Origin: Candidatus Omnitrophota bacterium
GTDB taxonomy: Bacteria > Omnitrophota > Gorgyraeia > Gygaellales > JAQTUX01
Assembly (NCBI GenBank): GCA_028707125.1
Contig: JAQTUX010000002.1
Location: 16,355 to 80,354 of the forward strand
Reading direction: 5' to 3'
Length of the DNA stretch: 64,000 nt
Shown: positions 4,163 to 40,052 of the stretch, piece after piece
Layout of the letters: every line of letters begins with the position of its first letter
Position numbering within the stretch: position 1 is the first letter of the stretch
Program-made: the position numbers and the translations under genes
The notes under the pieces: model-generated
Databases searched by the model: none
What the model was told of the DNA's origin: nothing
Seen by the model: only the letters and a program-made list of their open reading frames with translations

Positions 4163-4514
4163 TGGCTTGAGGTTGAGGAACGGGCTCTGCCTGCTCCTGA
4201 ACGGCTGCCGGCGGCTGCGGCTTGCTTATATCCTGTATAGACGAATCAGCCGCGGACGCTACCGAGGCAGCTGACTCCATAAGCGAACGGGACTGCCGCG
4301 CGGAAAGAAAGGCGATCACCAAAGAAGAACAGAGAAAGGCAGTGGCCAGGATAGCGGTGGTCTTGGCGATAAAAGAGCTGGTCTTTGTGCCGAAGATCGA
4401 CTCCATGCCGGAAGCCATCTCAACAAGGCCGCCTCCTTTGCCCTGCTGGATAAGTATCACCGCTATCAACAATACGCATATGATCACGTGTAACGCGGTA
4501 AGTAATCCTAACAT
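4140..4514 (-). CDS. secG: Preprotein translocase subunit SecG.
   Basis: N-terminus MLGLLTALHVIICVLLIAVILIQQGKGGG is SecG-like, with two TM segments. It sits in the conserved position downstream of tpiA. Confidence 0.85.
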   Translation of the reverse strand: MLGLLTALHVIICVLLIAVILIQQGKGGGLVEMASGMESIFGTKTSSFIAKTTAILATAFLCSSLVIAFLSARQSRSLMESAASVASAADSSIQDISKPQPPAAVQEQAEPVPQPQASVPEQAK

Positions 4515-5281
4515 TATTTACTCACTCCTCTTGAATTGTTGACTATTGCCGCGAACGACTCTGCCTCAAGGCTGGCGCCTCCCACAAGCGCTCCGTCAAT
4601 ATCCGCTTGAGCCATTAACTCGCGCGCATTAGCCGGCTTAACGCTGCCTCCGTACTGAATACGCACGCTGCCGGCAACATCATCATTATACAACTTTGCC
4701 AGCAATTTGCGAATAAAATTATGCGCTTCCTGCGCCTGCTGCGGGGTGGCGGTCTTGCCTGTGCCTATCGCCCATACCGGCTCATAGGCAACCACAATTC
4801 CAGCCGCGTCTTCCGCGGAGATCCCATCAAAGGCGCCCTTTATATGGCTCTCTATGATGGCGAAGGTCTGGCCTTTTTCCCGCTGCGTGAGGTTCTCTCC
4901 CACGCAGGCAATAGGCGTAAGCCCTGCTTTCAATACCGCCTTCACCTTTTTGTTCACCGTCTGATCTGTTTCGGAAAAGAACTGCCGCCTTTCTGAATGC
5001 CCGACAATGATGAATTTTGCCCCGGCGTCCTTTAACATCGGCGCGGAAACCTCTCCCGTGAAAGCGCCGCTGTCTTCCCAATAGCAGTCCTGCGCTCCAA
5101 CCTGTATGTTTGTCTCAAACAACGCCTCGGCAACCTCAGCCAGCGCCGTAAAAGGCGGACAGACCACCAGCTCTACTTCTTCCACGTCCAGAAGCTGCCG
5201 CTTAAGGTTATTCACCAGCTCAAGCGACTCGGCGATGGTCTTATTCAATTTCCAGTTACCGGCTATTATCGGCCTTCTCAT
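4514..5281 (-). CDS. tpiA: Triosephosphate isomerase.
   Basis: [15 protein letters not shown] and the AYEPVWAIGTGKTAT TIM signature. Confidence 0.95.
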   Translation of the reverse strand: MRRPIIAGNWKLNKTIAESLELVNNLKRQLLDVEEVELVVCPPFTALAEVAEALFETNIQVGAQDCYWEDSGAFTGEVSAPMLKDAGAKFIIVGHSERRQFFSETDQTVNKKVKAVLKAGLTPIACVGENLTQREKGQTFAIIESHIKGAFDGISAEDAAGIVVAYEPVWAIGTGKTATPQQAQEAHNFIRKLLAKLYNDDVAGSVRIQYGGSVKPANARELMAQADIDGALVGGASLEAESFAAIVNNSRGVSK

Positions 5282-6462
5282 TATTTTTTGTCCTTCAGTG
5301 CCGCGATGCCGGGAAGGATTTTTCCCTCCATAAGCTCAAGAGATGCCCCGCCGCCGGTTGAGATGTGGGTCATTTTGTCTTCCAGTTTAAATTTGGCTAT
5401 TGCCGCCGCGGTATCGCCGCCGCCGATTATCGTGGTGGCTCCCAACGCGGCTATCAGGTTGGCTATCTCTTCTGTGCCCTTCTTAAAAGAATCCCATTCG
5501 GAAACCCCAAGCGGGCCGTTCCATACTACTGTCTTGGCGCCTTTTAAGGCGGCCTTGAACTTTTCTATTGTCTTTGGCCCGATATCAAGGGCCATCAGGC
5601 CTTCGGGGATATCCTCGGAGTCAATAACGTGGGGCTCTGCCGAGGCGTCAAACCTGTCAGACGCTACATGGTCTACAGGAAGGGCTATGTTCACATTCTT
5701 TGTCCTGGCGTCGTCCAGGATCTTCTTGGCGATATTTACTTTATCCGGCTCAAGCTTGGAACTGCCGACATTCTTGCCTAAGGCAACAAGGAAGGTGTAG
5801 GCCATTCCTCCGCCGATTATGATGCAGTCGGCCTTGGGCAGCAGATTTTCGATCACACCTATTTTGTCGGAGATCTTGGCGCCGCCGAGGATTATCACGA
5901 AGGGCTTTTTGGGTTTATCCAGGGCGCCGATAAGGTACTCTATTTCTTTCTCCAGCAGGAAGCCGGCTACCGAAGGCAGGTATTTTGTAACGCCTTCTGT
6001 TGATGCGTGCGCTCTATGGGCTGTGCCGAAGGCGTCATTGACGAATATGTCTGCCAGGCCTGCCAGTTCTTTGGCGAAGGCAGGGTCATTGGCTTCTTCT
6101 TCGGCGTGGAATCTCAAGTTCTCCAGCAGGATGACTTTTTCTTTCGCGGCATCGACTTCTGCCTTGACTTTGACGCAGTCGTTGAGTTTTTTCACGGGCA
6201 TATTCAGGAGTTTGTTTAATCTCTCGGCTACGGGCTGTAAGCTGTATTTTGCCTCCGGCTTGCCCTTTGGCCTGCCCAGATGGCTCATCAGGATTAACTT
6301 TGCCGCGCCTTTGTCCAGGATGTATTTCATTGTGGGGACTGCCGCGCGTATTCTGATGTCATCGGTGATGTTCAAAGATTCATCGAGCGGCACATTAAAG
6401 TCCGCCCGCATAAGCACTTTTTTGCCTTTCAGGTCAATGTCTCTAATAGTCATTTTATCCAT
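5281..6462 (-). CDS. pgk: Phosphoglycerate kinase.
   Basis: [27 protein letters not shown] aligns to the Pgk N-terminus. The likely start is the ATG at 6462, with GGAGG 7 nt upstream. The ORF-track start at 6531 is a GTG inside an upstream hairpin and is probably an over-extension. Confidence 0.93.
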
Positions 6463-6520
6463 AGTCATACCTCCGAAAGAACATATTTTACGCCAATATG
6501 TCTTTTTGTCAATACTTTCT

Positions 6521-6600
6521 CCTCTACACACTTACGTGTGTAGAATCGTCTATCTTCCAAGCTTACCATGCCCCACACGTAAGTGTGGGGTAGCATTTCG
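6521..6600. repeat. Dual-hairpin intergenic element, copy 1: tctacacacTTACgtgtgtaga, a roughly 28-nt spacer, then ccccacacGTAAgtgtgggg.
   Basis: Two perfect 8-9 bp stems with 4-nt loops. A near-identical unit recurs at 26425-26503, and a single-hairpin version at 46711-46730. It lies upstream of a TTGACA-16-TAAAAT promoter for pgk. Confidence 0.7.
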
Positions 6601-6766
6601 TTCTAGGCAGCGGGGCCTGTCTTTGGACAGCCCCACCCCGTGCTCATTACCATAACGGACGGGAGAACTCCGCGCGGGGCGGGGCGCCCCGTCCAAAGCC
6701 ACCCGCTGAGACATCAGCGAGACATCCTCAACGTCCCTCGAAACCCAGCCAAGCCATCCGCTACAA
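6596..6766. repeat. GC-rich palindromic repeat, copy A (REP/MITE-like), the left boundary of the low-GC cassette.
   Basis: cctgtctttggacagccccaccccgtgctcattac ... gaactccgcgcggggcggggcgccccgtccaaagccaccc is near-identical to the reverse complement of 8966-9068. It contains internal inverted sub-repeats (ctttggac...gtccaaag). Confidence 0.75.
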
Positions 6767-6907
6767 TAATCTGTCGGCACCAAAACAAAACGGCGCCAAT
6801 TTCTCAGCGCCGATAAGTGTCACATTTTGTGACACCTTAATATTTCTTCTATAACTCGTTAGGGGTAATTAGATTGCGTAAAGCGCCTGAAGGATTAGCG
6901 ATTAGGA

Positions 6908-8131
6908 TTATACGGTAAATCTTTCAACAGTAGTCATATCTATAATCCCAGAACTAATATTCTTCAAAATGATAAAAGGTTTTAATAATGGATTTTTAAA
7001 TCGATATCTGTATCGTTTAGGTTTACCTATCTTTTCTAAAACATCTCCTCGATCGGCACTACATAATTGACTTAAATTATACGCGAAATAAGAAACAGTC
7101 ATCGTCGTCCTTTCGGTTATATATTTAAGAGGGGCTAAAATATCCATTGCACGGAAAGTTCCGTAATCATCTACAGGTGCCAAAGCACAAGCAAGCAAAA
7201 CTTCGCTAAACATTGTTTTCTTTGAAGCTATAGTTGCTTTTTGATACAAATCTCTTATGCTTTCTTGTGTATCATCTAAGGCCTGTTCTATTGCCATTTC
7301 AAAATCTGCTGAAGTGATTTCATTTCTTTCACTAATAATAGCTTGTTTAGCACAATATTTAGATAACAAATGAGTATAATGCGGAAATCCTTGAGATAGA
7401 CTTGCAATGCGATTTTTTATTTCCTCGTTCATGTTGAGCGCTAAAATACTAAGACCCTTATTTATGATCTCCTTGAGTTCTTCACGAGACATACGTTGAA
7501 GAAAGACTTGCCGAAGATTTCTTTCAATCGAAGCGTGTTCTCCTATTAACTCATTTACATTATGTGCAACGCCAACTATAACTAAAGTAACGTTAAATAA
7601 ACTGTCGGAAAAAGCTTTAATAATATCTGAAAAAAGTCGCTTAGTTTTAGTATCGTCTACTCTATCAAATTCATCAATAATTAATATTATAAATTTCGAA
7701 ATCTTCTCGAAAATATGTACAACATCATCTGGATTTATTGGCTTATCTGGAGAAAGAAAGCCATTAAGAGAAAAGGATTTTAACTCTGTATCTTTACCAA
7801 AGCCAAGCTTAGCCTGCTCTGAGGTTATATATATCCGCTTAAGCAATTTTCTCCAGATAGCTGAAAAATCATCATTGGTAACGCAGTTTACTTTAACAAC
7901 TATTTGAGCAGGTAATAACTCATTAATTATATTCGATAAAGAAGTCTTTCCAACCCCCCTCTCTCCGTATAAAATAGCATGACGTCCTTTTTCGTTTATG
8001 CTTGCATAAACTGCATCAATTTGCGATATTCTCCCTGCAAATAAATCTTTCTTATCAATAGGTGCGGATGGTGAAAATATGGAATCTAATAATATAAGTT
8101 TTTCTGTCTTAGGGTCGATTTGTTGATCCAT
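6908..8131 (-). CDS. AAA+ ATPase of the ATPase_2 (Arch_ATPase, COG1672-like) family, with a C-terminal DUF234-like domain I take to be a winged helix.
   Basis: Walker A GERGVGKTSL and Walker B IILIIDEFD. The C-terminal KPKRYRYRFKNPLLKPFI resembles the DUF234 motif. The gene is AT-rich relative to its flanks and has an AAGGGAGGA RBS. Confidence 0.7.
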   Translation of the reverse strand: MDQQIDPKTEKLILLDSIFSPSAPIDKKDLFAGRISQIDAVYASINEKGRHAILYGERGVGKTSLSNIINELLPAQIVVKVNCVTNDDFSAIWRKLLKRIYITSEQAKLGFGKDTELKSFSLNGFLSPDKPINPDDVVHIFEKISKFIILIIDEFDRVDDTKTKRLFSDIIKAFSDSLFNVTLVIVGVAHNVNELIGEHASIERNLRQVFLQRMSREELKEIINKGLSILALNMNEEIKNRIASLSQGFPHYTHLLSKYCAKQAIISERNEITSADFEMAIEQALDDTQESIRDLYQKATIASKKTMFSEVLLACALAPVDDYGTFRAMDILAPLKYITERTTMTVSYFAYNLSQLCSADRGDVLEKIGKPKRYRYRFKNPLLKPFIILKNISSGIIDMTTVERFTV

Positions 8132-8236
8132 GAGTCCTCCCTTTTTATGCAGAATAAATTCTCCAGCCGCTTTACATTACTTCCGTTACCACAAGAAATT
8201 ATTTCAATGAGAACCGTCCCCGTTACACGTATATTT

Positions 8237-8764
8237 CTATTGTAATTCATCTCTGCTGCCTACTTTAAAAAGCTTTGTAATACGGCTATCAGTTCTTAGT
8301 TTTAAATTCTTATCTCTAGCAATATCTATCATAAATTTTTTTACTGCTTTAAAAAAATCTCTGGTAAAACGTGGTATGCTTATAAGAACTAAATCTTTCT
8401 CTTTAGAGGGGTTATAAATATGTTCCGAACCATTATGATAAACAAAGATTTTACAGCTTTTCGTTTCACTTAAACGTGATTCCACTCCATATCTATGAAC
8501 AATTCCGCACCTTGCTCCATATATATCTATACTTCTATATTGATATGATTGCTGTAAATCTGTTTTCATATATTTTTCTACCCAATTAATATAATCTTTT
8601 CGCTTAACTTCCTTTTGTGCCAATGGCATTGCTAAAAAAGCCATCGCGTCAATTGCAGAAAGAGTAAGTATAACTGAACCAGCTACAATACCATTATTTT
8701 CCGCTTTTTTAATATCTCCACAAATACCATCAACTATAATCTCTATATAAAGACTTTTAGCCAT
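8237..8764 (-). CDS. Hypothetical protein of 175 aa, co-located with the ATPase in the low-GC cassette.
   Basis: Clean ORF with AT-rich codon usage matching the neighbouring ATPase. An upstream TTGAGC-16-TATAAT promoter is present. I recognise no family. Confidence 0.5.
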   Translation of the reverse strand: MAKSLYIEIIVDGICGDIKKAENNGIVAGSVILTLSAIDAMAFLAMPLAQKEVKRKDYINWVEKYMKTDLQQSYQYRSIDIYGARCGIVHRYGVESRLSETKSCKIFVYHNGSEHIYNPSKEKDLVLISIPRFTRDFFKAVKKFMIDIARDKNLKLRTDSRITKLFKVGSRDELQ

Positions 8765-8857
8765 ATAACAATCCGAATAACTTACTAATTGTTCATCTTT
8801 TCTATTATACCATCCCGCGGGCGGGGCTCAAATGGAATTTGGAGTTATCCACAACTG

Positions 8858-8929
8858 TAGGGGAGGTTTAAACCTCCCCTACCACTTATATAATATAAAA
8901 GGTGGTCGCAAATTGCGACCACCTTTTAT
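8858..8929. terminator. Pair of perfect hairpins (gtaggggaggtttaaacctcccctac, then ataaaaggtggtcgcaaattgcgaccaccttttat). The second looks like a bidirectional intrinsic terminator.
   Basis: Perfect 9-13 bp stems. The second stem is flanked by A-runs and T-runs on both sides. Confidence 0.55.
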
Positions 8930-8940
8930 ATTATTTCGTA

Positions 8941-9093
8941 GCGTCTGGCTTGGCTGTGATTGCCTCAGTGGGTGGCTTTGGACGGGGCGCCCCGCCCCGC
9001 GCGGAGTTCACCTATGATGAATTAGTAATGAGCACGGGGTGGGGCTGTCCAAAGACAGGACCCGCTGTCTCGAAACACAGCCAAGACAGACGC
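8941..9093. repeat. GC-rich palindromic repeat, copy B (REP/MITE-like), the right boundary of the low-GC cassette. Its own termini are inverted: gcgtctggcttggctg ... cagccaagacagacgc.
   Basis: The reverse complement matches copy A over about 35 + 40 bp with one or two mismatches. It carries 16-bp terminal inverted repeats and an internal imperfect palindrome. Confidence 0.75.
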
Positions 9094-9095
9094 AG

Positions 9096-9127
9096 AAAGT
9101 GTTCCTGAGCGAGAAAGGCAACGGGTT
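9096..9127. repeat. 32-bp direct repeat DR1 (tgagcgagaaaggcaacgggttcattgcatag), followed by a UUCG-type hairpin at 9131-9160.
   Basis: Matches 9849-9880 at 29 of 32 positions in direct orientation. The two copies bracket the protease module. Confidence 0.7.
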
Positions 9128-9185
9128 CATTGCATAGAGATTGCTTCGCCCCTTCGGGGCTCGCAATGACGGAAGCGGCAATTCG

Positions 9186-9584
9186 CTATGATTTTAACGA
9201 AAAGGTAAACTTCGGATAATCTATGGTAAGCAAAAACTTACTCAAGAAACTCTTTACGCCGAGCAGAGAAATGGAAAGATTTGGCAGGAAATCTATTAAA
9301 ACATCCTTAATTGTAAAATCATAAACCTGCAAGCAAACTGTATGCGCATAGGCAATCGTTTCTCCGTTGCCGGTTTTTACCTTTTTAGGATGCCCTTTTT
9401 GCAAATTATGACCGACAATAGCAGCAAAATCGGCTGGGAAGGCGCATTCGTCCGCTCCAGTATCAATTATTCCGTAGGTTCTTAATCTCTTATTTGTATG
9501 AGGATTTATAATAGTTACAGGGAGGGCTACTCGTGGTATATCATTATGGCCAATTTTAATAAAAGGATGATTAACAATATCCAT
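9186..9584 (-). CDS. Retropepsin-like (clan AA) aspartic protease.
   Basis: GIIDTGADECAFP carries the D-T-G-A catalytic signature of retroviral-type aspartyl proteases. The protein is 132 aa, consistent with a single-domain homodimeric retropepsin. Confidence 0.7.
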   Translation of the reverse strand: MDIVNHPFIKIGHNDIPRVALPVTIINPHTNKRLRTYGIIDTGADECAFPADFAAIVGHNLQKGHPKKVKTGNGETIAYAHTVCLQVYDFTIKDVLIDFLPNLSISLLGVKSFLSKFLLTIDYPKFTFSLKS

Positions 9585-9784
9585 TAGTAGATTTGCGCCA
9601 TGCCTTTTAATGGCACAAATACCACAACGGGATTATTATAGCCCTTTTTTACTGCCTTTTTAAAGGCCTCCTGAGCAGTATCGCCGTAGCCGATAACCCT
9701 GGAATCATCAAAATCCCGCATCGCTACATATCTGCCGTTATATCTATTGCCTTTTATAAGCGTCTTTATCATTTTTATCACCAA
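9584..9784 (-). CDS. Small 66-aa protein that I recall as DUF5678-like, encoded upstream of the protease with an ATGA stop/start overlap.
   Basis: The sequence, including RYNGRYVAM ... VVFVP, resembles what I recall of the DUF5678 family. It is translationally coupled to the protease gene. A TTGGCA-17-TATAAT promoter ends about 10 nt before the ATG, so the transcript is probably leaderless. Confidence 0.5.
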   Translation of the reverse strand: MVIKMIKTLIKGNRYNGRYVAMRDFDDSRVIGYGDTAQEAFKKAVKKGYNNPVVVFVPLKGMAQIY

Positions 9785-9848
9785 TTTAATTATACAACAA
9801 TCTTGCTAATTTGCCAATGGTTTTCTTCTACAGGCAGGGCCCCTCTCT

Positions 9849-9880
9849 TGAGCGAGAAAAGCAACGGGTTCATAGCACAG
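9849..9880. repeat. 32-bp direct repeat DR2 (tgagcgagaaaagcaacgggttcatagcacag).
   Basis: Direct copy of DR1 at 9096-9127. Confidence 0.7.
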
Positions 9881-9890
9881 GGGTTATAAA

Positions 9891-9931: not shown

Positions 9932-10600
9932 TTACTGCAATTTCTCGGGATGATGCCGGACGACTTCTGCCTGGACCATATAGATCACGTCCTCGGCGAT
10001 ATTGGTAGCGTGGTCGCATATGCGCTCCAGGAAACGGGCTATCAGCAACAGCTGGACAGCCCTGGGGGCCGTAGAGCCGTCCTTGACCATGTAATCTTCT
10101 ATGAGCTCCTTTTGTATCACATCGCGGAGCTGATCGGCCTGCGAATCAGACAACAGGACCTGCTTTGCCAGGGCGATATCCCCTTTTACGAACGCGTCTA
10201 TGGACATCTTTACCATATTCTGCGCCACAGCCGTCAGCCTGGGTATATCTATAAGCGGCTTTAACAGCGGCTTGTCCACTATCTCAAGTGTCCGCTGCGC
10301 TATATCCACGGCAATGTCCGCTATCCTTTCCAGTTCAGCGTTTATCTTCATACCGGTGGTGATAAAACGAAGATCCTTTGCCATCGGCTGATAGCGCGCT
10401 ATCAGATCAATGCACTTCTCATCCACGGACAATTCCAGCTTATCAATATCGGCGTCGTTGCTTATGACGCTCTTTACCATATCCTTATCCCGGCCCTTCA
10501 GCGCCTCTACTGATCTATAGATGGCCTCTTCTGCCAGGGCAGCCATCTTCAGGATCTCCTTGTTCAGTTCTTTCAACTCCTGGTCAACATGCCTTTCCAT
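9932..10600 (-). CDS. phoU: Phosphate transport system regulatory protein PhoU.
   Basis: Two PhoU repeats. The gene sits at the 3' end of the pst operon. Confidence 0.9.
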   Translation of the reverse strand: MERHVDQELKELNKEILKMAALAEEAIYRSVEALKGRDKDMVKSVISNDADIDKLELSVDEKCIDLIARYQPMAKDLRFITTGMKINAELERIADIAVDIAQRTLEIVDKPLLKPLIDIPRLTAVAQNMVKMSIDAFVKGDIALAKQVLLSDSQADQLRDVIQKELIEDYMVKDGSTAPRAVQLLLIARFLERICDHATNIAEDVIYMVQAEVVRHHPEKLQ

Positions 10601-10617
10601 TTTATACCTCCGATCAT

Positions 10618-11373
10618 TTATCCATACCTTCCGGTGATGTAATCTTCCGTGCGCTTGTCCTGCGGCGCGGTGAATATCTCCTGCGTCTTCCCGAACTCTA
10701 TCAGTTCGCCTAAAAGCATGAAGCCGGTATCGTCTGAAACGCGCGCCGCCTGCTGCATATTATGCGTGACTATTATTATAGTATAACTATTCTTCAATTC
10801 ACGCATTAATTCTTCAACCCTCGCGGTCGCCTGCGGGTCCAGGGTAGAACAGGGCTCATCCATTAACAGCACATCCGGCTTGACAGCGATAAGGCGGGCT
10901 ATGCAAAGGCGCTGCTTCTGCTCCAAAGACAGGCGCAATGCCGGCTCAGCCAGCCGGTCTTTTAATTCATCCCAGAGAAGCACGCCTTTCAAGCTTGTTT
11001 CAACTATCTCGTCCAGGCCGTCCCTGGTTATATTTTCCGCGTGTATCCTTTCTCCGAAAACAATATTCTCATAGATCGACAGCGGGAAAGGGTTGGGCCG
11101 CTGGAATACCATCCCTATCTTCTTGCGCAGGGCCACCAGGTCCGCGGCAGGGTCCAGGATATTGCCGCTGTCAACCAGGACCTGCCCGTGCGTGCGCACG
11201 CCATCGATCAGGTCATTCATCCGGTTGAACACCCTGAGCAAAGTGGACTTACCGCATCCTGAAGGGCCGATTATAGCAGTGATCCTGTTGGCCTCAAAGC
11301 CGGAGTTTATATTCTTCAAGGCGTGGAAGCTGCCGTACCAAAGGTTCAGGTCTCGCGTGGCGATCTTTGCCAT
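10618..11373 (-). CDS. pstB: Phosphate ABC transporter ATP-binding protein PstB-like, a paralog with a degenerate signature motif.
   Basis: Walker [10 protein letters not shown] and Walker [12 protein letters not shown] are intact. The ABC signature reads LSLEQKQRL instead of LSGGQQQRL. Confidence 0.85.
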
Positions 11374-12119
11374 TATCCGAATTTTCCCCTGATGTAACCG
11401 TCCGTGCGCTTGTCCCGCGGCGCGGTGAACATCCTGTCTGTATTGTCCAGCTCAACGAGCTCGCCGTTCAAGAAGAACGCTGTCTTGTCTGAGACCCTGG
11501 CTGCCTGCTTCACGTTGTTGGTCACCAGGACAATGGTGAATTTCTCCTTGAGCTTGACCATGGCGTCTTCCACCTTGGCGGTAGAGATAGGGTCAAGCCC
11601 TGAACAGGGTTCGTCAAACAGTATCACCTCGGGGCCGACCGCCAATGTCCTGGCAATGCAAAGGCGCTGCTGCTGGCCCCCTGATAATTTGAACGCTGAT
11701 TCGCCTAACCTGTCTTTGACCTCTTCCCAGAGATAGGCCTGCCGCAAGGTCTCTTCCACCCTCTCTTCCAATCTCCTCATTATTTTTTCCCCGTGTATCC
11801 TTAAACCGTACGCCACATTCTCAAATATGGATAAAGGCAGAGGCAGAGGCAGCGCGAAAACCATGCCTATCTTGCGGCGCAGTTCCTCTATTTCAATCCC
11901 GCGCACATCCTCTCGCTCAAATTCTACTGCTCCGGCCGCCCTGTAATTGACGTTGAGCTCATTAAGGCGGTTAAGCGTGCGCAGGAAGGTCGTCTTGCCG
12001 CTGTTAGCCGGCCCTATCACGCCCAGTATCTCATTGGACTGGATCTCCATATTGAGATGCCTTATGGACTGCAGCGGGCCAAACCATACATTCAGATCGT
12101 GTATCTCGAATTTTACCAT
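11373..12119 (-). CDS. pstB: Phosphate ABC transporter ATP-binding protein PstB (canonical).
   Basis: Walker [10 protein letters not shown], signature [13 protein letters not shown] and Walker [12 protein letters not shown]. Confidence 0.9.
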
Positions 12120-13848: not shown

Positions 13849-14683
13849 AATCGGTCTTCAGCACGATCTCCTGGCCTTCTTTTGAAAGAATAAAATCAAT
13901 AAATTTTTTGACCAGCCCATCCGGCTCTCCGTTAGTGTATATGAATAAGGGCCGGGAAATGGGATAGGCGCCGCTCAAAACATTGTCTATCGCGGGCTCA
14001 ATATATTCCGACTTTTCGTCTTTGGCCACGGCTACCGGCTTTTGCTTAGGCGAAATATAGCCCATTCCATAATAACCGATGGCGGCGGGATTGCCTGCCA
14101 CCTCATCGGCGATCGCCTGAGAAGATGAAAGCATCAGCGCCGTAGGGGCAAATTCCTCTTTGCTGCCAGGGTCGTTCTTCCTTAATACGTGCTCCTTAAA
14201 ATAAACATGGGTGCCGGAATTGACTTCGCGCGAAAGCACCACTATCTTCTCATCCCCGCCCCCCACCTGCTTCCAGTTAGTAACCCTGCCGGTAAAGATA
14301 TCGGCCAGCTGCGCCAGGGTAAGTTTAGCGGCGGGATTAGCCGGATTCACTATCACCGCGAGGCCGTCTAATCCGACTTTTATTTCGTTGGGATTGATGC
14401 CTTTCTGCCTGGCAAGGGCGATCTCCTTTTCCTTGATATTCCTGGAACTCATGGCTATATCGCAGGTGCCGCTTATCAGGCTTGACAGGCCTGTGCCTGA
14501 GCCGCCGCCCGTAACCGCCACAAAATCGCCGGCGTTATCCTCCATATACTTTTCAGCCCAGGCCTGGCCCAGGTTCACCATCGTATCCGAGCCTTTGACC
14601 TGTATGGAATTTTCATCCCTTGCCGCGGACGCGGAAGCCGCGAACATGGCCGCGATCAGAACAAATGCCCATGTTTTAAACAT
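13829..14683 (-). CDS. pstS: Phosphate-binding protein PstS.
   Basis: Signal peptide plus a PBP-like fold. The N-terminal region after the signal peptide reads GSDTM, a PstS hallmark. Confidence 0.9.
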   Translation of the reverse strand: MFKTWAFVLIAAMFAASASAARDENSIQVKGSDTMVNLGQAWAEKYMEDNAGDFVAVTGGGSGTGLSSLISGTCDIAMSSRNIKEKEIALARQKGINPNEIKVGLDGLAVIVNPANPAAKLTLAQLADIFTGRVTNWKQVGGGDEKIVVLSREVNSGTHVYFKEHVLRKNDPGSKEEFAPTALMLSSSQAIADEVAGNPAAIGYYGMGYISPKQKPVAVAKDEKSEYIEPAIDNVLSGAYPISRPLFIYTNGEPDGLVKKFIDFILSKEGQEIVLKTDFVPVKK

Positions 14684-14723
14684 ATTTTCCTCCTTATTTT
14701 TTGTTTTCTTTATTAATTATATC

Positions 14724-14773
14724 GTATCTATATTAGATATAGATGAAGTTAATGTAAAATCTATGTAAAATCT
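14724..14773 (-). promoter_or_regulatory. Pho-box-like operator and promoter upstream of pstS.
   Basis: Two perfect 11-bp tandem direct repeats (minus strand: TAGATTTTACA TAGATTTTACA, then the degenerate TTAACTTCATC). The TTTACA half-sites have 11-bp periodicity, like PhoB/PhoP boxes. The palindrome atctatattagatatagat and a TATAAT -10 follow. Confidence 0.6.
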
Positions 14774-15425
14774 AGAAAACAAGCTTTAGCTTAATTCCCA
14801 GCACATTGGCGTCTTTCCACTCCCCTGAACTCCTGCTGCTTTGCAATAAATAGTAAACCTCACTTTTTATATTCCCGTTAATGGCAAGGCCAAAACCGGA
14901 ATACAGCCTGTTCCTGCTTAGCGAGCCGTCATCTAATTCAACGAAGATTTCATCCGCCACATAAGGCTGGATCTCAAACTTTGTCAATTTCCAGGGAAAC
15001 TTTACGGCAAACTTATTACGGTACCTCCAGGTATCAGCTTGATAATCGAAATGCCGGTACTCAATGCGGTTACGGTCGTCAAGTTTAAATCCGTATAATT
15101 CATATTTTAGCGCCGCGTTCAAATGAGGCCTGTTCTCATCTTTGAATTTACCTTTCTTTTTTTCATAGGCCTGCCTGTAGGCGATCCCCAAATCAAGATG
15201 CTTGTTCAAGCTGTATATAAAACCCGCGTCATAGTGGTGATAATAGAAATCACCGGCATCATCTCCCCAGCGGAATTCTTCTTCCAGGGTTATCTTTGAC
15301 TCTTTGTTAACCTTAAATTCCTGGTTTTCTGTATGCCATATTTGAAAGTCACCGTCATCATAAGCATAAACCTTTACTGCTAAAACTAAAACCATGCTGG
15401 TTATCATAAAAATAACCTTCTTCAT
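14772..15425 (-). CDS. Small outer-membrane beta-barrel protein (DUF2490-like), a candidate phosphate-starvation-induced porin.
   Basis: Signal peptide MKKVIFMITSMVLVLAVKVYA. The protein has an alternating amphipathic beta pattern and ends in a C-terminal Phe (LKLVF), an OMP signature. A Pho-box-like repeat lies upstream. The likely start is the ATG at 15425, after AGGAGGGG. Confidence 0.6.
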   Translation of the reverse strand: MKKVIFMITSMVLVLAVKVYAYDDGDFQIWHTENQEFKVNKESKITLEEEFRWGDDAGDFYYHHYDAGFIYSLNKHLDLGIAYRQAYEKKKGKFKDENRPHLNAALKYELYGFKLDDRNRIEYRHFDYQADTWRYRNKFAVKFPWKLTKFEIQPYVADEIFVELDDGSLSRNRLYSGFGLAINGNIKSEVYYLLQSSRSSGEWKDANVLGIKLKLVF

Positions 15426-15493
15426 ATTCCCCTCCTTTTTTTTAATCCTGAAATAAGTATACAATGGGCATATTAAATCCGCTTCAAGGAGAA

Positions 15494-15515
15494 GTAAAAT
15501 GCAGGTAAAATGTTT
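15494..15515 (-). promoter_or_regulatory. Pho-box-like direct repeats upstream of the small OMP gene.
   Basis: Minus strand: CATTTTAC ctg CATTTTAC. The same ATTTTAC half-site recurs with 11-bp spacing, as upstream of pstS. Confidence 0.5.
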
Positions 15516-15521
15516 TTGGAG

Positions 15522-16622
15522 TTATTCAGGAAGGGAAAAATGGAATTTTGAGCCCAGGCCTTCGGTGCTTTCCACGCCGACTGAACCGCCGTGGAGCTCA
15601 ACAATGTGTTTAACGATAGAAAGCCCGAGGCCGGTCCCGCCGAGTTCGCGGGAGCGGGCTTTATCTACGCGGTAGAAACGTTCAAAAATACGGGGGGCAT
15701 CTTTCGCGGGGATGCCGATCCCGGAATCCTCCACGAATATTTTTATTTCGCCGCCTGAATACCGGCTGTATATTTTAACCGTGCCGTCCTGCCGGTTGAA
15801 TTTGATCGCGTTGTCAATAAGGTTAGTCATGACCTGGCTGATCTTACCTTCATCCGCCTTGATTAATAAATCCGGAGGCAGATCATTGACGGCTGAAACA
15901 GATCTTTTCTTCAAGTGAGATTTGAAACCCGCCAATATGTCGTCGGCAAGTTTCCTGATATTCACTTCCTTTTTCTCAAGCGCCGCTGCCTTTGATTCCA
16001 GATAAGACAAATCCAGCAGGTCATTGACTAAACTATCCAGGCGGTCGGTGTGATCCTGAATAATCCGCAGGAAATGCCGGCTGTTTTCTTTATCCTCTAA
16101 CGCGCCTTCAAGGAGCGTCTCCACAAAGCCCTTTATGGAAGTGAGCGGCGTCTTTAATTCGTGCGATACATTGGCTACAAAATCAGAGCGCACCTGTTCT
16201 AATTTCCTTATCTCGGTAATGTCGTGTATGACTATCAGGCAGCCGCTTACCCTGCCGTTCTCAAGTATGGGCGAAGCGTTAACCTGGAATATCCGCTGAA
16301 CAGGCCAGACAAGATCAAGTTCCTGAGAAATAAAATCCCCGTTTTTTAATACCTTCTGCATGACCTCTACGATGTCGTTATTGCGGACCGCCTCTAAAAA
16401 AAATCTGCCTTCGCTTTCTCTCTTCAGGATGCCGAATATCTTCTCCGCCGAAGAATTAATGGAAACTATCCTTGTGTCCCTGTTGACTATAATTACCCCC
16501 TCTACCATGCTCTCCAGCACAGTCCGGATAGAATTATACCGCGCCTCCAGCTTGTTCATCTCCTTAGAGGCGTGATCCAGTTCCTCTTTTAATTTTCTTA
16601 TCCTGGCCCTGTCCCCGAACAT
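15522..16622 (-). CDS. phoR: Phosphate regulon sensor histidine kinase PhoR-like (PAS-HisKA-HATPase, no obvious TM segment).
   Basis: H-box SHELKTPLTSIKG, plus N, G1 and G2 boxes (GGTGLGLSIVK). It is adjacent to phoB. Confidence 0.85.
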   Translation of the reverse strand: MFGDRARIRKLKEELDHASKEMNKLEARYNSIRTVLESMVEGVIIVNRDTRIVSINSSAEKIFGILKRESEGRFFLEAVRNNDIVEVMQKVLKNGDFISQELDLVWPVQRIFQVNASPILENGRVSGCLIVIHDITEIRKLEQVRSDFVANVSHELKTPLTSIKGFVETLLEGALEDKENSRHFLRIIQDHTDRLDSLVNDLLDLSYLESKAAALEKKEVNIRKLADDILAGFKSHLKKRSVSAVNDLPPDLLIKADEGKISQVMTNLIDNAIKFNRQDGTVKIYSRYSGGEIKIFVEDSGIGIPAKDAPRIFERFYRVDKARSRELGGTGLGLSIVKHIVELHGGSVGVESTEGLGSKFHFSLPE

Positions 16623-31566: not shown

Positions 31567-33029
31567 TATTTCAGCAGTTTTTCCATAAAACCCTTTATCT
31601 TCGTTTCTAACATAAACCTGAAGAAAAGATGCCTCACCCGGAATTTTGCCAATGGGCGGTAGATCTCAATTAAGAACCTGACGACCCTGGACTTGACCAT
31701 GTCCTTCGCGCGGTGCCTGTCTAAAAACATGGAGGAAAAGAATAAGGAAGAAATGTTTCTTTTCCTTTCCGGCGATTGCCAGAGATCATCTCCATAATCC
31801 GCGGTTTGCCAATCCTCCAGGCTTTTTCTATGGATAAATCCGCCATCAAGGCTTTTCTGATAAAGTATGGTCCCGGGATAAGGCGTATAAGGGCAGATCG
31901 GAGAAATGAGCGCGTTGGGGTTTTCCTCCATCAATTGAAATACCAGGTCCTTGGTTTTACGGATGTCTTCCCATGTTTCTTCGGGAAAGCCGCACATGAA
32001 ATTATATTGAATGACAATGTCAAATCTGCGCCATTCTCTATTGACCTTTATTATATCACTGATCTTCAAATTCTTATTTATCTGTTTCAGCACGCGTTCA
32101 GACCCCGACTCCACTCCAAAGTGCACCTTCTTCAACCCTGACTTCAACAACACATCCATGTAATCATCATCCATTTTCAACGCTGAATTCACTGTTATCC
32201 CCTGCGCCTCCCAGAAAATATCCAACCCCTCATCTATTATGCCCTGTGCTATATTCAAACTGCGCCTTAGATCAACGAAAAAGTTATCGTCAACCACATA
32301 GTAGCTGTTTATATGATAACGGCCGGTCAGGTATTTCAGGTCGCGTATGACCCTTTCCGCGGAAAAAGCCCTCCACGTGCTGTTATTATAAGTGTAATTG
32401 TAACAAAAGGCGCAGCGATTAGGGCAGCCCCGCGATGTCTCTATATAAAATGTCCTGCGGCCCTTAAAACTGGGCAGGTATTTATTCAAGTCCACCAGGG
32501 ACAACGGCAGTTCAGGCAGATCATCCAGATCCGCGAATTTTATTCCGGGATTCTTAACGGCCCGCCCTGCCTCTTTAAACCAGATGCCCTCTATCCCTTT
32601 CAGGCTGGATCTCGCTGCCAATCTTTTAACTAATTCCAGGAACGACGCCTCTCCTTCGCCGATAGCGACAATATCTACGGATTTATTCTCAAGCGTAGAT
32701 TCAGGCAATATGCTGGAGTGTATGCCTCCCCAGACAACCGGGATATCGGACAGCGCCTTAACGTATCTTGAAACCTCAAGGGCATAGCCTATCTGCCTGC
32801 CGGTCATGGAAGTGACCCCCACGCAAAGCGGTTCCTTCTCGATCTCGCGTTTTAAGGTCTTCTTCCATTCCCTATCCACTCTGGTGTCTATTAAAACGAC
32901 GTCAAATTCCCTGGCAACCCTCCTCGCGCAGGATAACAAAGCCAGCGGCAAAGACGGATGGGAGCGAAAATCATCCCAATCCCCTACCTTCGGCTGTACC
33001 AGTATTACTTTAGGCGTCTTATCGTCCAA
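31566..33029 (-). CDS. Cobalamin-binding radical SAM enzyme (class B type).
   Basis: N-terminal B12-binding-like domain and the CxxxCxxC cluster (CPNRCAFC). Confidence 0.75.
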   Translation of the reverse strand: MDDKTPKVILVQPKVGDWDDFRSHPSLPLALLSCARRVAREFDVVLIDTRVDREWKKTLKREIEKEPLCVGVTSMTGRQIGYALEVSRYVKALSDIPVVWGGIHSSILPESTLENKSVDIVAIGEGEASFLELVKRLAARSSLKGIEGIWFKEAGRAVKNPGIKFADLDDLPELPLSLVDLNKYLPSFKGRRTFYIETSRGCPNRCAFCYNYTYNNSTWRAFSAERVIRDLKYLTGRYHINSYYVVDDNFFVDLRRSLNIAQGIIDEGLDIFWEAQGITVNSALKMDDDYMDVLLKSGLKKVHFGVESGSERVLKQINKNLKISDIIKVNREWRRFDIVIQYNFMCGFPEETWEDIRKTKDLVFQLMEENPNALISPICPYTPYPGTILYQKSLDGGFIHRKSLEDWQTADYGDDLWQSPERKRNISSLFFSSMFLDRHRAKDMVKSRVVRFLIEIYRPLAKFRVRHLFFRFMLETKIKGFMEKLLK

Positions 33030-33032
33030 TCT

Positions 33033-35093
33033 TTATATATTTAATCTGTAGACCCTTACGGTATCGTTGGAAAAAACCAATTTAAATTCTTCCGGGTTAT
33101 TTTCAGCCCAGCCATCTTCAAGAGGGAATACCATATCTTTTGTATGTTGAAGCGAATAAATAAACAGAAGATCTGTATTCCTCTTTTTTAGATTGCGCAG
33201 CCAAGCCGCGTAATCGGCCCCGCCGCGATAGTTATCCGGCTCTTCGAAACTTTTATGCATTTGCGTGGCGTCATCTGTCCATCTTGGCCATCGGTAGTTA
33301 GAATTCTTCAGGTCGTGCAAATGTATCGGGTCAACAGAATTAACCGATACGTAATAAACATTGTTCTTAAGGCCTGTCCCATACAAAGGAAACGGCAGGG
33401 GCTTGCCTACATACGCGATATTATCGCCTTTTGTATTCTCATTAAGCCATGCCCAGGATTGAGTAACATCAGGCCCATAGCGCGAATTCTTAATGTAACG
33501 TCCATATTCATTTTCTCTATAATCTGAGAACAGCCATCCAAGGCAGAAAATAAAGATCAATACGATCGTAACCGGCCTGGCCTTAGAGAATAAAATGTTC
33601 TTTAATCGTTCGGATCTTAAATAGAACACGCAGCCGATAAGTAATAATAAACCCGCCGCGAAAGAAACGATCAGCTCTAAGTGGCGCGCGCACTCAGCCA
33701 ACGAAGCGATTACGATTATTATAGAGGCCGTCCTGATGAATCTATCGGGGACCCGCAGGGAATCCAGAATATAGAAGCCAACGATCATGCCCATGCCTAA
33801 CGCCGGATATAGATAACGGGAGTTTGGGATCGGCAGAATAAACCGGTAGATCAGATAAAGCAATAAAGGCAATAACATAAAACAGCCCAAAACAGAATCC
33901 CTGTTCCTGTTTTTATATAAATAGAGCGGAAATGCCATGATCCCGGCAGGCAGGATGATGAGCAGCGATTGTATGCCTAATCCCTCATGGAATAGCAGCT
34001 TGGCCAAAAAGTATCCTGCCTGCTCATTGCGGGATATAAAAGTCGCTTTATCTATTACGCCCTTAAAAAGGGTCGTTCCCAGCATCTTGACTTCCAATGG
34101 ATAAAAAGGGTTAGCGGTTAAAATGAAGTTTCTAAGATAGCCGAAGCACCCAAAAATGAATATCAACAGAAAAAACAAAGCCATATACAGGAGCCTGCTT
34201 CTTAATCCGATCAGCCTCTGCGTAAAAAGCAGGTATATAAATACCATAAAGACCAGAAGGCCGTAAGGCAGGGCCGTTGTCTTGACGCCTATGAATATTC
34301 CAAAAGAAACGGCAAGGATAATAACGTTTTTAATGTTGAATCTTTCTCTCAGGGCTAAAATAAAATTTATTGATACCAGGAATAACGCCGCCAGCATCAG
34401 ATCTACATAACCGATCTGTAGTTGTTTAAAAAAGTTCGGAATGATTACGAAAAGCGAAGAGGCAAAAAAAGAATGCTCATTATTCAATCTTAACTTTTTG
34501 CCGATGGAGAAAACGGCGAAAAAGGCAATGATAAAAAATGGCAGCTGGCCCAAGTCCGCCAAATACGCGCTTTTAAAAGGCAGGATAAGCCAAAGAAATA
34601 ACAAAGAGCCGTTTATCGGGTAATAAGCCGGAAAAGGATCGTCGCTTACTACAATTGGATTATCAAGATTCCCGTTCTTCAGCCATTCAACGGCAAAGGT
34701 AAAATGATAATTCAAACTGTCCCAGCCAAACGGGGGGTTTATCAAGTTTATGAATATCTTCACGATCGCGAAACCGGCAATAAACGCTAATACAAATACA
34801 GCCGGCTTGCTTAAAGCGATGCCGGGCTTATGACTGATCTTTGCCGGGCAGGACTGCCTTATGAATACCAGGCCCGTCAATAAAATCAGGGAATGCAGGA
34901 TGAGGGCGTTGAATAAAGAAAGTATCCGCAATATCCCCAGTAATTCCAGCGAGATAATGACCTGGGCTAAATACAGAATAAAGAAAACGATAAGGCCGCT
35001 TTCTCCGTCCTCCGCCGCGAAAAATCTACGGATAATCAACCTTACATTCAGAAAGACCAGATAATTAGCGATCAGAAATATAACGTAATCCAT
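33033..35093 (-). CDS. Large polytopic membrane glycosyltransferase, PMT/ArnT-like (GT39/GT83-type).
   Basis: 686 aa, with about 13 TM helices followed by a roughly 170-aa C-terminal soluble domain. Located in a glycan cluster. Confidence 0.55.
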   Translation of the reverse strand: MDYVIFLIANYLVFLNVRLIIRRFFAAEDGESGLIVFFILYLAQVIISLELLGILRILSLFNALILHSLILLTGLVFIRQSCPAKISHKPGIALSKPAVFVLAFIAGFAIVKIFINLINPPFGWDSLNYHFTFAVEWLKNGNLDNPIVVSDDPFPAYYPINGSLLFLWLILPFKSAYLADLGQLPFFIIAFFAVFSIGKKLRLNNEHSFFASSLFVIIPNFFKQLQIGYVDLMLAALFLVSINFILALRERFNIKNVIILAVSFGIFIGVKTTALPYGLLVFMVFIYLLFTQRLIGLRSRLLYMALFFLLIFIFGCFGYLRNFILTANPFYPLEVKMLGTTLFKGVIDKATFISRNEQAGYFLAKLLFHEGLGIQSLLIILPAGIMAFPLYLYKNRNRDSVLGCFMLLPLLLYLIYRFILPIPNSRYLYPALGMGMIVGFYILDSLRVPDRFIRTASIIIVIASLAECARHLELIVSFAAGLLLLIGCVFYLRSERLKNILFSKARPVTIVLIFIFCLGWLFSDYRENEYGRYIKNSRYGPDVTQSWAWLNENTKGDNIAYVGKPLPFPLYGTGLKNNVYYVSVNSVDPIHLHDLKNSNYRWPRWTDDATQMHKSFEEPDNYRGGADYAAWLRNLKKRNTDLLFIYSLQHTKDMVFPLEDGWAENNPEEFKLVFSNDTVRVYRLNI

Positions 35094-38278: not shown

Positions 38279-39043
38279 TTAATTAGGCGCTTTGTATTTC
38301 CTGAACATATTATAAAAACCTGACAGCTTTGCCCGGAGCACGATCGGATTGGCGGAGCCATTGGTCATCTTTATCCGCCTTATCGCATAAATATTATCCC
38401 CCCTGCCCCGGTTGGTGGTGCATGCCGCCTTGAACCCCAGATCCCTGGCGATATCAATGGCGTCTTGCGTATAACCACCGGTGGGATAGCATAAGAGCGT
38501 CACCGTATCCCCTGTATTGCGCTCAATCGCCTGTTTGGACTCAGACAACTCCGCGCGTATCTTCTCAACCGTCAGGTCCGGAAGATAGGCGTTATTCGCG
38601 GTATGAACCCCGATTGAAATACCGTTCTTTATCATCTCGCCTATCTGCTCCCAGGAGAGATATCCGGCGCGCCCCACAAAATTGCTTATCACAAAGATAG
38701 TCGCGGGAAAACCGCGTTCCTTGAGAATTGGGAACGCGTTTATGTAGTTATTTTCGTATCCGTCATCAAAGGTAATGACCACTGACTTCGCGGGGATGAC
38801 TTCGCCTTCCAGGGCCGCGTCCGCGTATTCATCTAAGGATATTACTTTGTAGTTATGCTCTGCGATGAATTTCATCTGCTTCAGGAAGTTCTCTGTCGTT
38901 ACGTCAAGGGTGCCCATGTCTTCTTCAGAGCCGATGCTATGGTACATTAAGATCGGGGTTTGCCGCGGAAGGAATATATATATACAACCAGGCAAAACTA
39001 CGCTAAGCAGGAGCGCAGAAAATAGTATTCTTTTCAAACGCAT
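38279..39043 (-). CDS. Polysaccharide deacetylase (NodB homology domain).
   Basis: TFDDGY motif and a conserved His/Asp pattern. N-terminal TM anchor. Confidence 0.85.
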   Translation of the reverse strand: MRLKRILFSALLLSVVLPGCIYIFLPRQTPILMYHSIGSEEDMGTLDVTTENFLKQMKFIAEHNYKVISLDEYADAALEGEVIPAKSVVITFDDGYENNYINAFPILKERGFPATIFVISNFVGRAGYLSWEQIGEMIKNGISIGVHTANNAYLPDLTVEKIRAELSESKQAIERNTGDTVTLLCYPTGGYTQDAIDIARDLGFKAACTTNRGRGDNIYAIRRIKMTNGSANPIVLRAKLSGFYNMFRKYKAPN

Positions 39044-39047
39044 AAAC

Positions 39048-40052
39048 TCAGGATAAAAGATTAAGTTCGCCTAATTTTTCCGATAAATAATCCGCGATAA
39101 TATTGTTTGCCCTGTGGTTCTTATGCCTGTCGATCTCATTTATGGCCAGATCATCCGGCTCAAGATTCAACTCTGCCAGATAATATACAGGATCAATTAT
39201 GGCCAGATTGGGATGCTCTATTGAGCCGATCTTTTTATTTATATTCCAGAAAGGGTAACCAGTTTTAAAATCCGTGACCGAAGCGCACATCTCCGGAACA
39301 ACTGCCAGAACCAGCCTTATGCCGTGATTTTCGGTAAGATCTGCCATCCGCAGGATAGTATCGCGCGCCTGGCTGAAGGCATCCGAAGAATATAGATATC
39401 GATTATGGTCTACCTCGTTATGGATGCCCTTCGCCTGCCTTTGCCTGCGGATATTGTATTTCTTCCACCTGTAAAGAAAATACCTGGCCGTAAGCGAATG
39501 CGTATTAAGGAAATTCTTTTTAAAATAAAACTCCGGCTCGTCCGCGTCGTTAAAACAATAATATACAATTACTAAATCGGGGTTATATTTCATCCCCTTG
39601 ACTTTAAGCATCTCTAACTCCTGAAAACTATTATATCCTTCCACACCCATATTAATAACTTCAAACCTCGCGGGAGAAAAGTTATTATTCAAAGATGCCT
39701 CTAATTGTTTCGCGATAGTATGTTCTAAAGGCAGGAACCGGCCAAAGGCCTCAGAATCACCGATAAATACTATACGAAACACCCCTTGCGGCTTCTCCTG
39801 AGGGTACTCCTTATCCCTGAAGCCGTCAGAGTTGATCTCGATCTTATAACCCCGGTCTCTGTAATCTTCGAACGTGTTTGGCTTAAATTCATACCGTAAA
39901 ATTTTGTTATCACTCTTCTGAAATATATTCGCCTTCCAGGGGAAACGGCCCATTTCCCAGAACAGATACAGCCCTGCCTCAAAAATAAGAAACATAGCGG
40001 TAATAACGGCTATGTTCACGATTATGACTTTAGATATGGATCTTCTATCCAT
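39048..40052 (-). CDS. SGNH/GDSL-type hydrolase (esterase or acyltransferase-like), membrane-anchored.
   Basis: Block I FIGDSEAFG. N-terminal TM segment. Confidence 0.6.
   Translation of the reverse strand: MDRRSISKVIIVNIAVITAMFLIFEAGLYLFWEMGRFPWKANIFQKSDNKILRYEFKPNTFEDYRDRGYKIEINSDGFRDKEYPQEKPQGVFRIVFIGDSEAFGRFLPLEHTIAKQLEASLNNNFSPARFEVINMGVEGYNSFQELEMLKVKGMKYNPDLVIVYYCFNDADEPEFYFKKNFLNTHSLTARYFLYRWKKYNIRRQRQAKGIHNEVDHNRYLYSSDAFSQARDTILRMADLTENHGIRLVLAVVPEMCASVTDFKTGYPFWNINKKIGSIEHPNLAIIDPVYYLAELNLEPDDLAINEIDRHKNHRANNIIADYLSEKLGELNLLS

Follow-up and report, generated by a model that had tools for sequence, protein, structure and literature searches.

There is prior evidence of defence-type genes that are found as small repeat-flanked units. 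(Furuta, Abe and Kobayashi, 2010; PMC2853133) described restriction-modification genes both as units flanked by inverted repeats and as insertions with a long target duplication, and the transposase-less units among them carry imperfect inverted repeats of 26-65 bp. There are also HEPN proteins that act alone in defence, such as HepS, which is activated by an invader-derived trigger (PMC13043305), and Butters gp57r (bioRxiv 10.1101/2023.01.03.522681). We have compared with these precedents a locus found in a stretch of 64,000 nucleotides (nt) of a Candidatus Omnitrophota bacterium (metagenome-assembled genome GCA_028707125.1, contig JAQTUX010000002.1, positions 16,355 to 80,354), called here the window. 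Between phoU and pgk this stretch holds a cassette of low guanine-plus-cytosine (GC) content with two genes, one coding for a protein of 175 amino acids (aa) and the other for an AAA+ ATPase of 407 aa, bracketed by inverted copies of a GC-rich hairpin repeat. An earlier note on this DNA had proposed the two genes as a candidate uncharacterised system, with the architecture of phage defence. Our analysis indicates that each of them belongs to a separate family of mainly solo genes, and that the gap between phoU and pgk is probably an insertion hotspot holding independent single-gene mobile conflict modules.

The proposal of a two-gene system was examined over the loci in which relatives of either gene are found. 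For the 175-aa family there were 85 loci from a metagenome scan and contig look-ups, with at least 1.4 kb of sequence downstream in 34 of them and upstream in 46, and for the ATPase 117 loci from genome and viral scans. A tblastn search with the window ATPase gave no homologue in any of those 85 loci, and in the 117 ATPase loci the 175-aa protein in turn had no relative. Nor is the other gene present where the nearest homologues are found, which are 73% identical to the 175-aa protein and 61-64% to the ATPase. When profile hidden Markov models of both families were applied to the six-frame translations of 215 loci, the two appeared together only in L203 and L204, contigs of the organism that the window itself belongs to; outside it neither family was accompanied by the other, over about 90 independent loci for the 175-aa protein and about 121 for the ATPase. 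Clustering of the neighbouring genes gave a conserved partner for neither family. In both, the genes stand mainly alone, and what lies next to them is unrelated and often encoded on the other strand. This absence of co-occurrence elsewhere is a refuting result that had been named beforehand, and the claim of a conserved two-gene system is therefore not supported, the pairing being restricted to this organism. What does hold is that both genes have the appearance of defence or conflict-type cargo.

Some features of the cassette weigh against two independent genes. Both lie on the same strand, 105 nt apart, with one predicted promoter, one terminator, equal GC and one repeat bracket around them. 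Besides, there are other families in which HEPN domains are paired with or fused to ATPases, as in PrrC/RloC, Ava_2192 and MAE_18760 with a ParA-like ATPase (PMC3710099). These features would suit a two-component defence or toxin-antitoxin-like system, a new pairing of this lineage, in which the AAA+ ATPase would sense infection or restrain its partner, controlling a HEPN-like effector. The identical cassette was also assembled independently from two sequencing runs. On the other side there are the profile searches without co-occurrence, the nearest homologues that lack the other gene and the predominantly solo character of both families, and nothing beyond adjacency speaks for a coupling specific to this lineage. 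We consider such a system improbable, and such a coupling equally so. The apparent two-gene defence system would be a chance juxtaposition of two solo mobile genes, a case that recommends testing co-occurrence before systems are named.

The homologues of the ATPase gene carry marks of insertion. In five loci, from five phyla, the gene was found alone between imperfect direct repeats of the target of 43-55 nt (positions in Table 1). In L153 the repeat includes the ribosome-binding site of the downstream PhyH gene along with its first 13 codons, and it is the duplicated start that the ATPase uses; a promoter forms the repeat in L006, and in L155 the upstream gene's 3' end does. In eight loci (L101, L107, L120, L132, L135, L144, L175 and L176) an IS6-like transposase is located immediately upstream of the ATPase on the opposite strand, as a gene of about 160-330 aa with a weak DDE_Tnp_IS240 match, the ATPase match being at about position 5001 of the locus. 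Two of them have inverted repeats, L135 with 947-nt copies (99.9% identity) around the region and L120 with repeats of 133 nt, which suggests transposons with the ATPase as cargo. The single-gene insertions, the target duplications and the IS6-like neighbours point to a cargo gene that is mobile on its own. The ATPase gene is often inserted singly and is normally a solo mobile gene, and a widespread AAA+/winged-helix ATPase of about 400 aa that moves in this way is one of the leads provided by this locus.

The ATPase of the window has a Walker A (GERGVGKTS) and a Walker B motif (IIDEFD), and both motifs together with several arginines are invariant in its family. Its structural model (predicted local distance difference test, pLDDT, of 93) is made up of an AAA+ domain, a lid of RuvB type and a C-terminal winged helix (about residues 308-393), a fold shared with the solved Arch_ATPase members. 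The closest in fold are archaeal Arch_ATPase proteins (PF01637/COG1672; PABY2304, 2qen, and SSO1545, 2fna) and Orc1/Cdc6, but unlike the Arch_ATPase group the family described here is bacterial and phage-borne and scores better with nSTAND1 and AAA_16. An Orc1/Cdc6-like or TnsC/MuB/TniB-like protein could be an accessory of transposition or replication left by a decayed mobile element, with no part in defence, an explanation that we consider very improbable for this ATPase. We know of no established function for the Arch_ATPase group, so the resemblance transfers no mechanism. In the Pfam scan the ATPase was above the thresholds for nSTAND1, AAA_16 and AAA_22 (nSTAND1, PF20703, with 39.2 bits for a threshold of 27.1 over residues 27-299), and PF01637 reached 23.1 bits, below its gathering threshold of 33.2; some homologues have precomputed PF01637 matches. 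The earlier description of the protein as an ATPase_2/Arch_ATPase with a DUF234-like domain agrees with fold, motifs and winged helix, but PF01637 is below threshold and DUF234 (PF03008) is absent among the matches listed for the ATPase. In STAND proteins the NTPase is joined to an effector domain and sensor repeats. This architecture was considered for the ATPase and rejected, as the 407-aa protein consists of AAA+ domain, lid and winged helix alone.

The family is large. Of 8,000 candidates scored 4,683 had E <= 0.001, and a relative was detected in at least 537 species genomes of many phyla (537 of the first 600 pattern matches) and in 34 IMG/VR contigs. The window protein matches phrog_6841 at 8e-58. 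Among phages, the homologue gp30 of Mycobacterium phage Kevin1 (L208) lies between the lysis genes and the integrase, and gp34 of Gordonia phage Cashline between tail genes and the integrase. The variable region of cluster N mycobacteriophages, in which the Kevin1 gp30 site is found, is one that encodes prophage-expressed defences. As a separate observation, the gene immediately upstream of Kevin1 gp30 has been annotated as a HicB-like antitoxin (gp30-gp31). In PADLOC the candidate single-gene system PDC-S59 resembles the ATPase in length (a profile of 428 positions for 407 aa), and 29 of 34 ATPase family members match it colinearly; the matches are, however, weak (best E 1.6e-12) and fall mainly on residues 149-298, and PDC-S59 is itself only a candidate. 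No paper mentioning PDC-S59 was found in the literature searched. The immediate neighbours of the ATPase genes count against a role in defence, being heterogeneous and mostly housekeeping genes with few defence matches, so that this role is only weakly suggested. The protein would be catalytically intact and may work as an ATP-dependent nucleic-acid-binding switch, possibly as a single-gene defence or exclusion factor. It may be related to PDC-S59 and to genes of the variable regions of temperate phages.

The other gene of the cassette had been described as coding for a protein of no recognisable family. This was right as far as models are concerned, since there is no match in Pfam, NCBIfam or PADLOC, but a HEPN-like fold and motif could be recognised. 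The sole match of the 175-aa protein was phrog_18591, a family of unknown function (1.8e-8). A word-indexed search gave 48 relatives, and an exhaustive profile search gave 1,831 cluster representatives (clusters at 50% identity) with E <= 1e-3, 1,261 at E <= 1e-10. The members are mostly of 165-195 aa. The AlphaFold model of the window protein is confident (pLDDT 94.5) and has four long helices, of which the second and third are separated by a short one, and besides a beta-hairpin and C-terminal helices. Over 135 representatives that share 20-50% identity with it, D39 is the only fully invariant column, and conservation reaches 90% or more at R85, C86, H90, W61, Y65 and Y109. In 33 closer sequences R85 and H90 are invariant and the motif reads A-R-C-G-I-V-H-R-Y. 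According to the model, R85-CGIV-H90 would close the third core helix (78-91) at its C-terminus, and D39 would be part of the second (27-45). In a survey of HEPN domains, helix 3 ends with an Rx4-6H motif, helix 2 carries a conserved acidic residue close to that motif, and the two helices are separated by an insert (PMC3710099), and in the 175-aa protein an Rx4-6H closes helix 3 and the conserved acidic residue is in helix 2. As D39 and R85-x4-H90-x-Y92 are found in a confident model at the positions by which HEPN is defined, we read the protein as HEPN-like. It is quite likely that it belongs to a new HEPN-like family and is a probable ribonuclease (RNase).

When compared with known HEPN RNases (HepS of prophage Gifsy-1, AbiV, Butters gp57r and the DUF86-type toxins with Rx4HxY), the 175-aa protein shares the helical bundle with the insert between helices 2 and 3, the R-x4-H-x-Y that ends helix 3 and the acidic residue in helix 2. 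Like the solo abortive-infection HEPN proteins, it is small, stand-alone and found in mobile or defence-island contexts. Several results argue against the assignment. After the predicted catalytic arginine there is a cysteine (Cys86, at least 90% conserved), where HEPN proteins usually have a polar residue (N, D or H), a typical but not an obligatory feature (PMC3710099). The protein also differs by the extra beta-hairpin and by two C-terminal helices, and neither by sequence nor by profile could a similarity to HEPN Pfam families or to solved structures be detected. Thus, the HEPN Pfam families matched none of the 33 + 135 (168) members scanned, Foldseek gave nothing significant for the model against the PDB (best E 2.3, although the top two were HEPN proteins), profile searches against PDB sequences gave nothing, and hhalign against two DUF4145 neighbours was negative. 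With respect to the module formed by a HEPN protein and a minimal nucleotidyltransferase (MNT-HEPN), no minimal nucleotidyltransferase gene is present in the cassette and none recurs near the family, AbiEii having been matched once; there is no antitoxin partner of another kind nearby either.

In other genomes the 175-aa family has among its neighbours integrases, Mrr, type I restriction-modification subunits, AbiU2, Abi_2, AbiEii, DruA, RelE/helix-turn-helix pairs and Bro-N; the PADLOC scans of the neighbour sets are qualitative, with the families listed without the fraction of members matched. Some of the islands that hold relatives are bounded by tRNA-derived or other direct repeats. By analogy with HepS, the protein might be a latent RNase that acts as a single-protein abortive-infection or toxin effector and is triggered by an invader. 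Independently of its activity, a large family of small proteins outside Pfam, NCBIfam and PADLOC, with a HEPN-like signature and in defence-island contexts, is a second lead. We also noted C-terminal extensions in some members, P0188 (462 aa), which is fused to leucine-rich repeats, P0213 (478 aa) and P0044-P0048 (277-297 aa), with a Cys-rich tail resembling a zinc ribbon; those of P0188 and P0044-P0048 recall architectures of effector plus sensor.

We have examined the repeats that bracket the cassette, and the presence of two inverted GC-rich copies was confirmed. The arms match in three blocks, 6662-6713 with 8961-9012 (52 nt, 94%), 6601-6650 with 9025-9074 (50 nt, 94%) and 6741-6764 with 8938-8961 (24 nt, 83%), and blastn aligned the two copies over 114 nt at 87%. 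The inverted match proposed before is therefore correct, but its blocks are longer than the 35 + 40 bp that had been given. In the window each of the core 27-mers and 30-mers was counted exactly two times, against a chance expectation of 0, and a sensitive blastn search with permissive settings found no diverged third copy in the 64 kb. The copies border exactly on the AT-rich cargo with their inner ends (GTAGCG...), at positions 6766 and 8938. The right copy folds as a single long hairpin (free energy -90.1 kcal/mol, z = -7.55), the other strand giving -81.9 kcal/mol, about 8 weaker. The left copy folds little better than shuffled sequence (z = -2.2), and it is not a clean palindrome because the outer arm was lost and there is an internal insertion of 28 nt. 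The idea that each copy is an imperfect palindrome with 16-bp terminal repeats thus applies to the right copy, where the arms have 21 nt, but not to the left one, where the outer arm is gone.

Outside the window the repeat was detected in one relative. No RNA family of Rfam matched the repeats, at gathering thresholds over the whole window or at permissive thresholds over 6300-9400, and exact scans with a 24-mer of the repeat (genome contigs) and a 20-mer (viral contigs) and blastn against plasmids gave nothing. In the contig L210 (Logan SRR33086907), with a pgk product 93% identical, the first 29 nt match window 6633-6605 at 28 of 29 positions. The match corresponds to the outer part of the left copy and is located about 136 nt upstream of pgk, the same distance as in the window. 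The intergenic DNA beside it could not be aligned and the pgk DNA was 82% identical, so that the repeat is better kept than its surroundings, which indicates a repeat family of this lineage. The Logan short-read contigs break at the repeat, and that L210 starts exactly there is what would be expected if the repeat were multi-copy in that genome.

These data bear on two explanations of the bracket. In the first, the repeats would be ordinary intergenic hairpins, similar to repetitive extragenic palindromic (REP) elements or to terminators, and the cassette, to which they are unrelated, would simply have come to lie between two of them. The right copy is indeed a very stable hairpin, both copies are intergenic and at operon boundaries, and the well-kept fragment of the relative, at which the Logan contigs break, agrees with a resident repeat. 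However, two copies only were found in 64 kb with dozens of intergenic regions, and both coincide exactly with the compositional borders of a single 2.2-kb insert. This explanation is possible, if on the unlikely side. In the second, the inverted repeats would be the ends of a non-autonomous transposon, a bracket similar to miniature inverted-repeat transposable elements, and a transposase acting in trans would have moved both genes as one piece. The repeats are long and imperfect, their inner ends meet the cargo exactly, the only two copies of the window are 2.2 kb apart, and the transposase-less restriction-modification units mentioned above set a precedent. Yet there is no transposase inside the unit, the left copy is without its outer arm, and no related repeat was found in any viral, plasmid or genome collection searched. 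That L210 ends in the repeat, as far from pgk as in the window, would suit a resident repeat family as well as a shared insertion. Two further negatives bear on an insertion of the unit between the inverted repeats: reading the sequence outside the outer ends (about 6596-6601 and 9075-9100) we saw no target duplication, and no empty site was found via the pgk relatives, since the contig L210 (93%) ends in the repeat and L211 (80%) has a different upstream gene. We regard this second explanation as unlikely. In the reading that we prefer, of a hotspot with independent modules, the inverted hairpin repeats, as a lineage-specific family, would either have mobilised the unit in trans or mark the hotspot. 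As the cassette has its own promoter and terminator, an inversion would have no obvious effect on expression.

The low GC does not end at the right repeat but extends to about 9800, where a second module is found with genes for a DUF5678 protein and a clan-AA aspartic protease. This pair is flanked by 40-nt direct repeats (9103-9142 and 9846-9885; TCYTGAGCGAGAAARGCAACGGGTTCATWGCAYAGRGRTT), identical at 34 of 40 positions, with 2 matches in the window and 0 expected by chance. It looks like an insertion that has left a long duplication of its target, downstream of phoU. Integron cassettes with attC sites were considered as well and rejected, as the hairpin copies are inverted rather than direct, no GTTRRRY core site was seen at the 40-nt direct repeats and no integrase open reading frame was seen in 4.5-12 kb.

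Compared with the units of Furuta and colleagues, the cassette of the window is similar in having defence-type genes without a transposase inside long imperfect inverted repeats. The 40-nt direct repeats of the adjacent module and the 43-55-nt duplications of the ATPase homologues, one of them fused to a host gene start, resemble their insertions with long target duplication. The differences are that the cargo is not restriction-modification, that the repeats, of about 155-170 nt, are longer and are themselves hairpins, the left one degenerate, that neither an 8-bp target duplication nor an empty site was found at the cassette, and that the repeat is also present in a relative at the same site. 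At this locus, mobile forms first described for restriction-modification genes would be extended to other cargo. The kinds themselves are known, and what is new is the HEPN-like family and the presence of cargo other than restriction-modification in repeat-flanked mobile forms.

From these comparisons the following course of events can be proposed. AT-rich modules from low-GC donors would have been collected between phoU and pgk, one with the order direct repeat, DUF5678 and protease genes, direct repeat, and another with the order inverted repeat, HEPN-like gene and ATPase gene, inverted repeat. The nearest homologues of both cassette genes are on contigs with GC of 0.34-0.42 (L205, L206, L207, L009 and L006), which fits a low-GC donor. 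The 175-aa gene and the ATPase gene would be independent cargo within one transcription unit, normally travelling and working alone. A wider reading would be that the 175-aa protein founds a large unannotated HEPN-like family (at least 1,800 clusters, with Arg-Cys...His-x-Tyr) of solo abortive-infection RNases and that paired hairpin repeats are a transposase-less vehicle for such modules in Omnitrophota; this we put forward as speculative and rather unlikely to hold in full.

The composition of the cassette agrees with its acquisition. The AT-rich stretch between the repeats (6767-8937, 2.2 kb) is the part of the window with the lowest GC, with values of 0.30-0.36 over 6801-8800 against about 0.52, and 0.51-0.56 in the tpiA/pgk and phoU/pstB flanks. 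By bins of 1 kb, 7001-8000 (0.339) and 8001-9000 (0.358) are the lowest of 64, the next lowest being 0.415. The contrast in composition with the flanks that had been pointed out was thus confirmed, as were the two co-oriented genes with GERGVGKT and LIIDEFD and the sigma70-like promoter, and the view of the cassette as acquired is supported by its being a self-contained transcription unit of low GC. No tRNA genes usable as attachment (att) sites were found. The cassette was reproduced in two independent short-read assemblies, L203 (Logan SRR22315508) and L204 (SRR22315506), in which both proteins are 100% identical. L203 runs from centre to centre of the inverted repeats (window about 8999 to 6684), the break pattern to be expected when the inverted repeats are longer than the assembly k-mer.

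All the genes of the region are on the minus strand, and transcription runs from high to low coordinates. With a promoter-like site and a terminator of its own, the cassette is a self-contained unit that is probably bicistronic. The spacer that separates its genes showed no terminator, and from the sequence it is plausible that they are co-transcribed from the one predicted promoter. Upstream, the palindrome at the right edge of the cargo (Table 1) probably acts as a terminator in both directions, screening the cassette from the operon upstream. On reading the sequence we observed a second palindrome, GTAGGGGAGGTTTAAACCTCCCCTAC, at 8857-8882. Both palindromes lie in the interval that separates the right repeat from the cassette's promoter-like site, and they are probably terminators or insulators.

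Table 1. Position of the features of the phoU-pgk region in the window and of the single-gene insertions of ATPase homologues in their own loci
Feature	Position	Strand	Remarks
tpiA	4514-5281	-	
pgk	5281-6531	-	
Left GC-rich repeat copy	6596-6766	-	inverted with respect to the right copy; degenerate; upstream of pgk promoter-like site
Intrinsic-terminator-like hairpin	6812-6791	-	CGGCGCTGAGAAATTGGCGCCG then TTTTGTTTTG; 96 nt past the ATPase stop codon
AAA+ ATPase gene (407 aa)	6908-8131	-	
Spacer between 175-aa and ATPase genes	8132-8236	-	105 nt; GGGAGG before the ATPase ATG; sequence reading
175-aa gene	8237-8764	-	undescribed HEPN-like family; probable RNase effector
Sigma-70-like promoter	8831->8804	-	TTGAGC-16 nt-TATAAT with TG extension (TG-n-TATAAT); upstream of 175-aa gene; 10/12 matches
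Palindrome	8890-8934	.	perfect 22-nt arms AAAAGGTGGTCGCAA/TTGCGACCACCTTTT, 100% complementary; right edge of AT-rich cargo
Right GC-rich repeat copy	8938-9093	+	complete hairpin of about 155 nt; 21-nt terminal arms
Second low-GC module	9103-9885	-	DUF5678 + clan-AA aspartic protease
Clan-AA aspartic protease (132 aa)	9186-9584	-	
DUF5678 protein (66 aa)	9584-9784	-	
phoU	9932-10600	-	
pstB, two copies	10618-12119	-	
Single-gene ATPase insertions	L006:4941-6450, L117:4792-6256, L146:4539-6267, L153:4937-6318, L155:4790-6297		

Other patches of lower GC (0.40-0.44) were seen in the window at 14600-15600, 33000-35000 and 39000-40000, and they may be acquired segments too.

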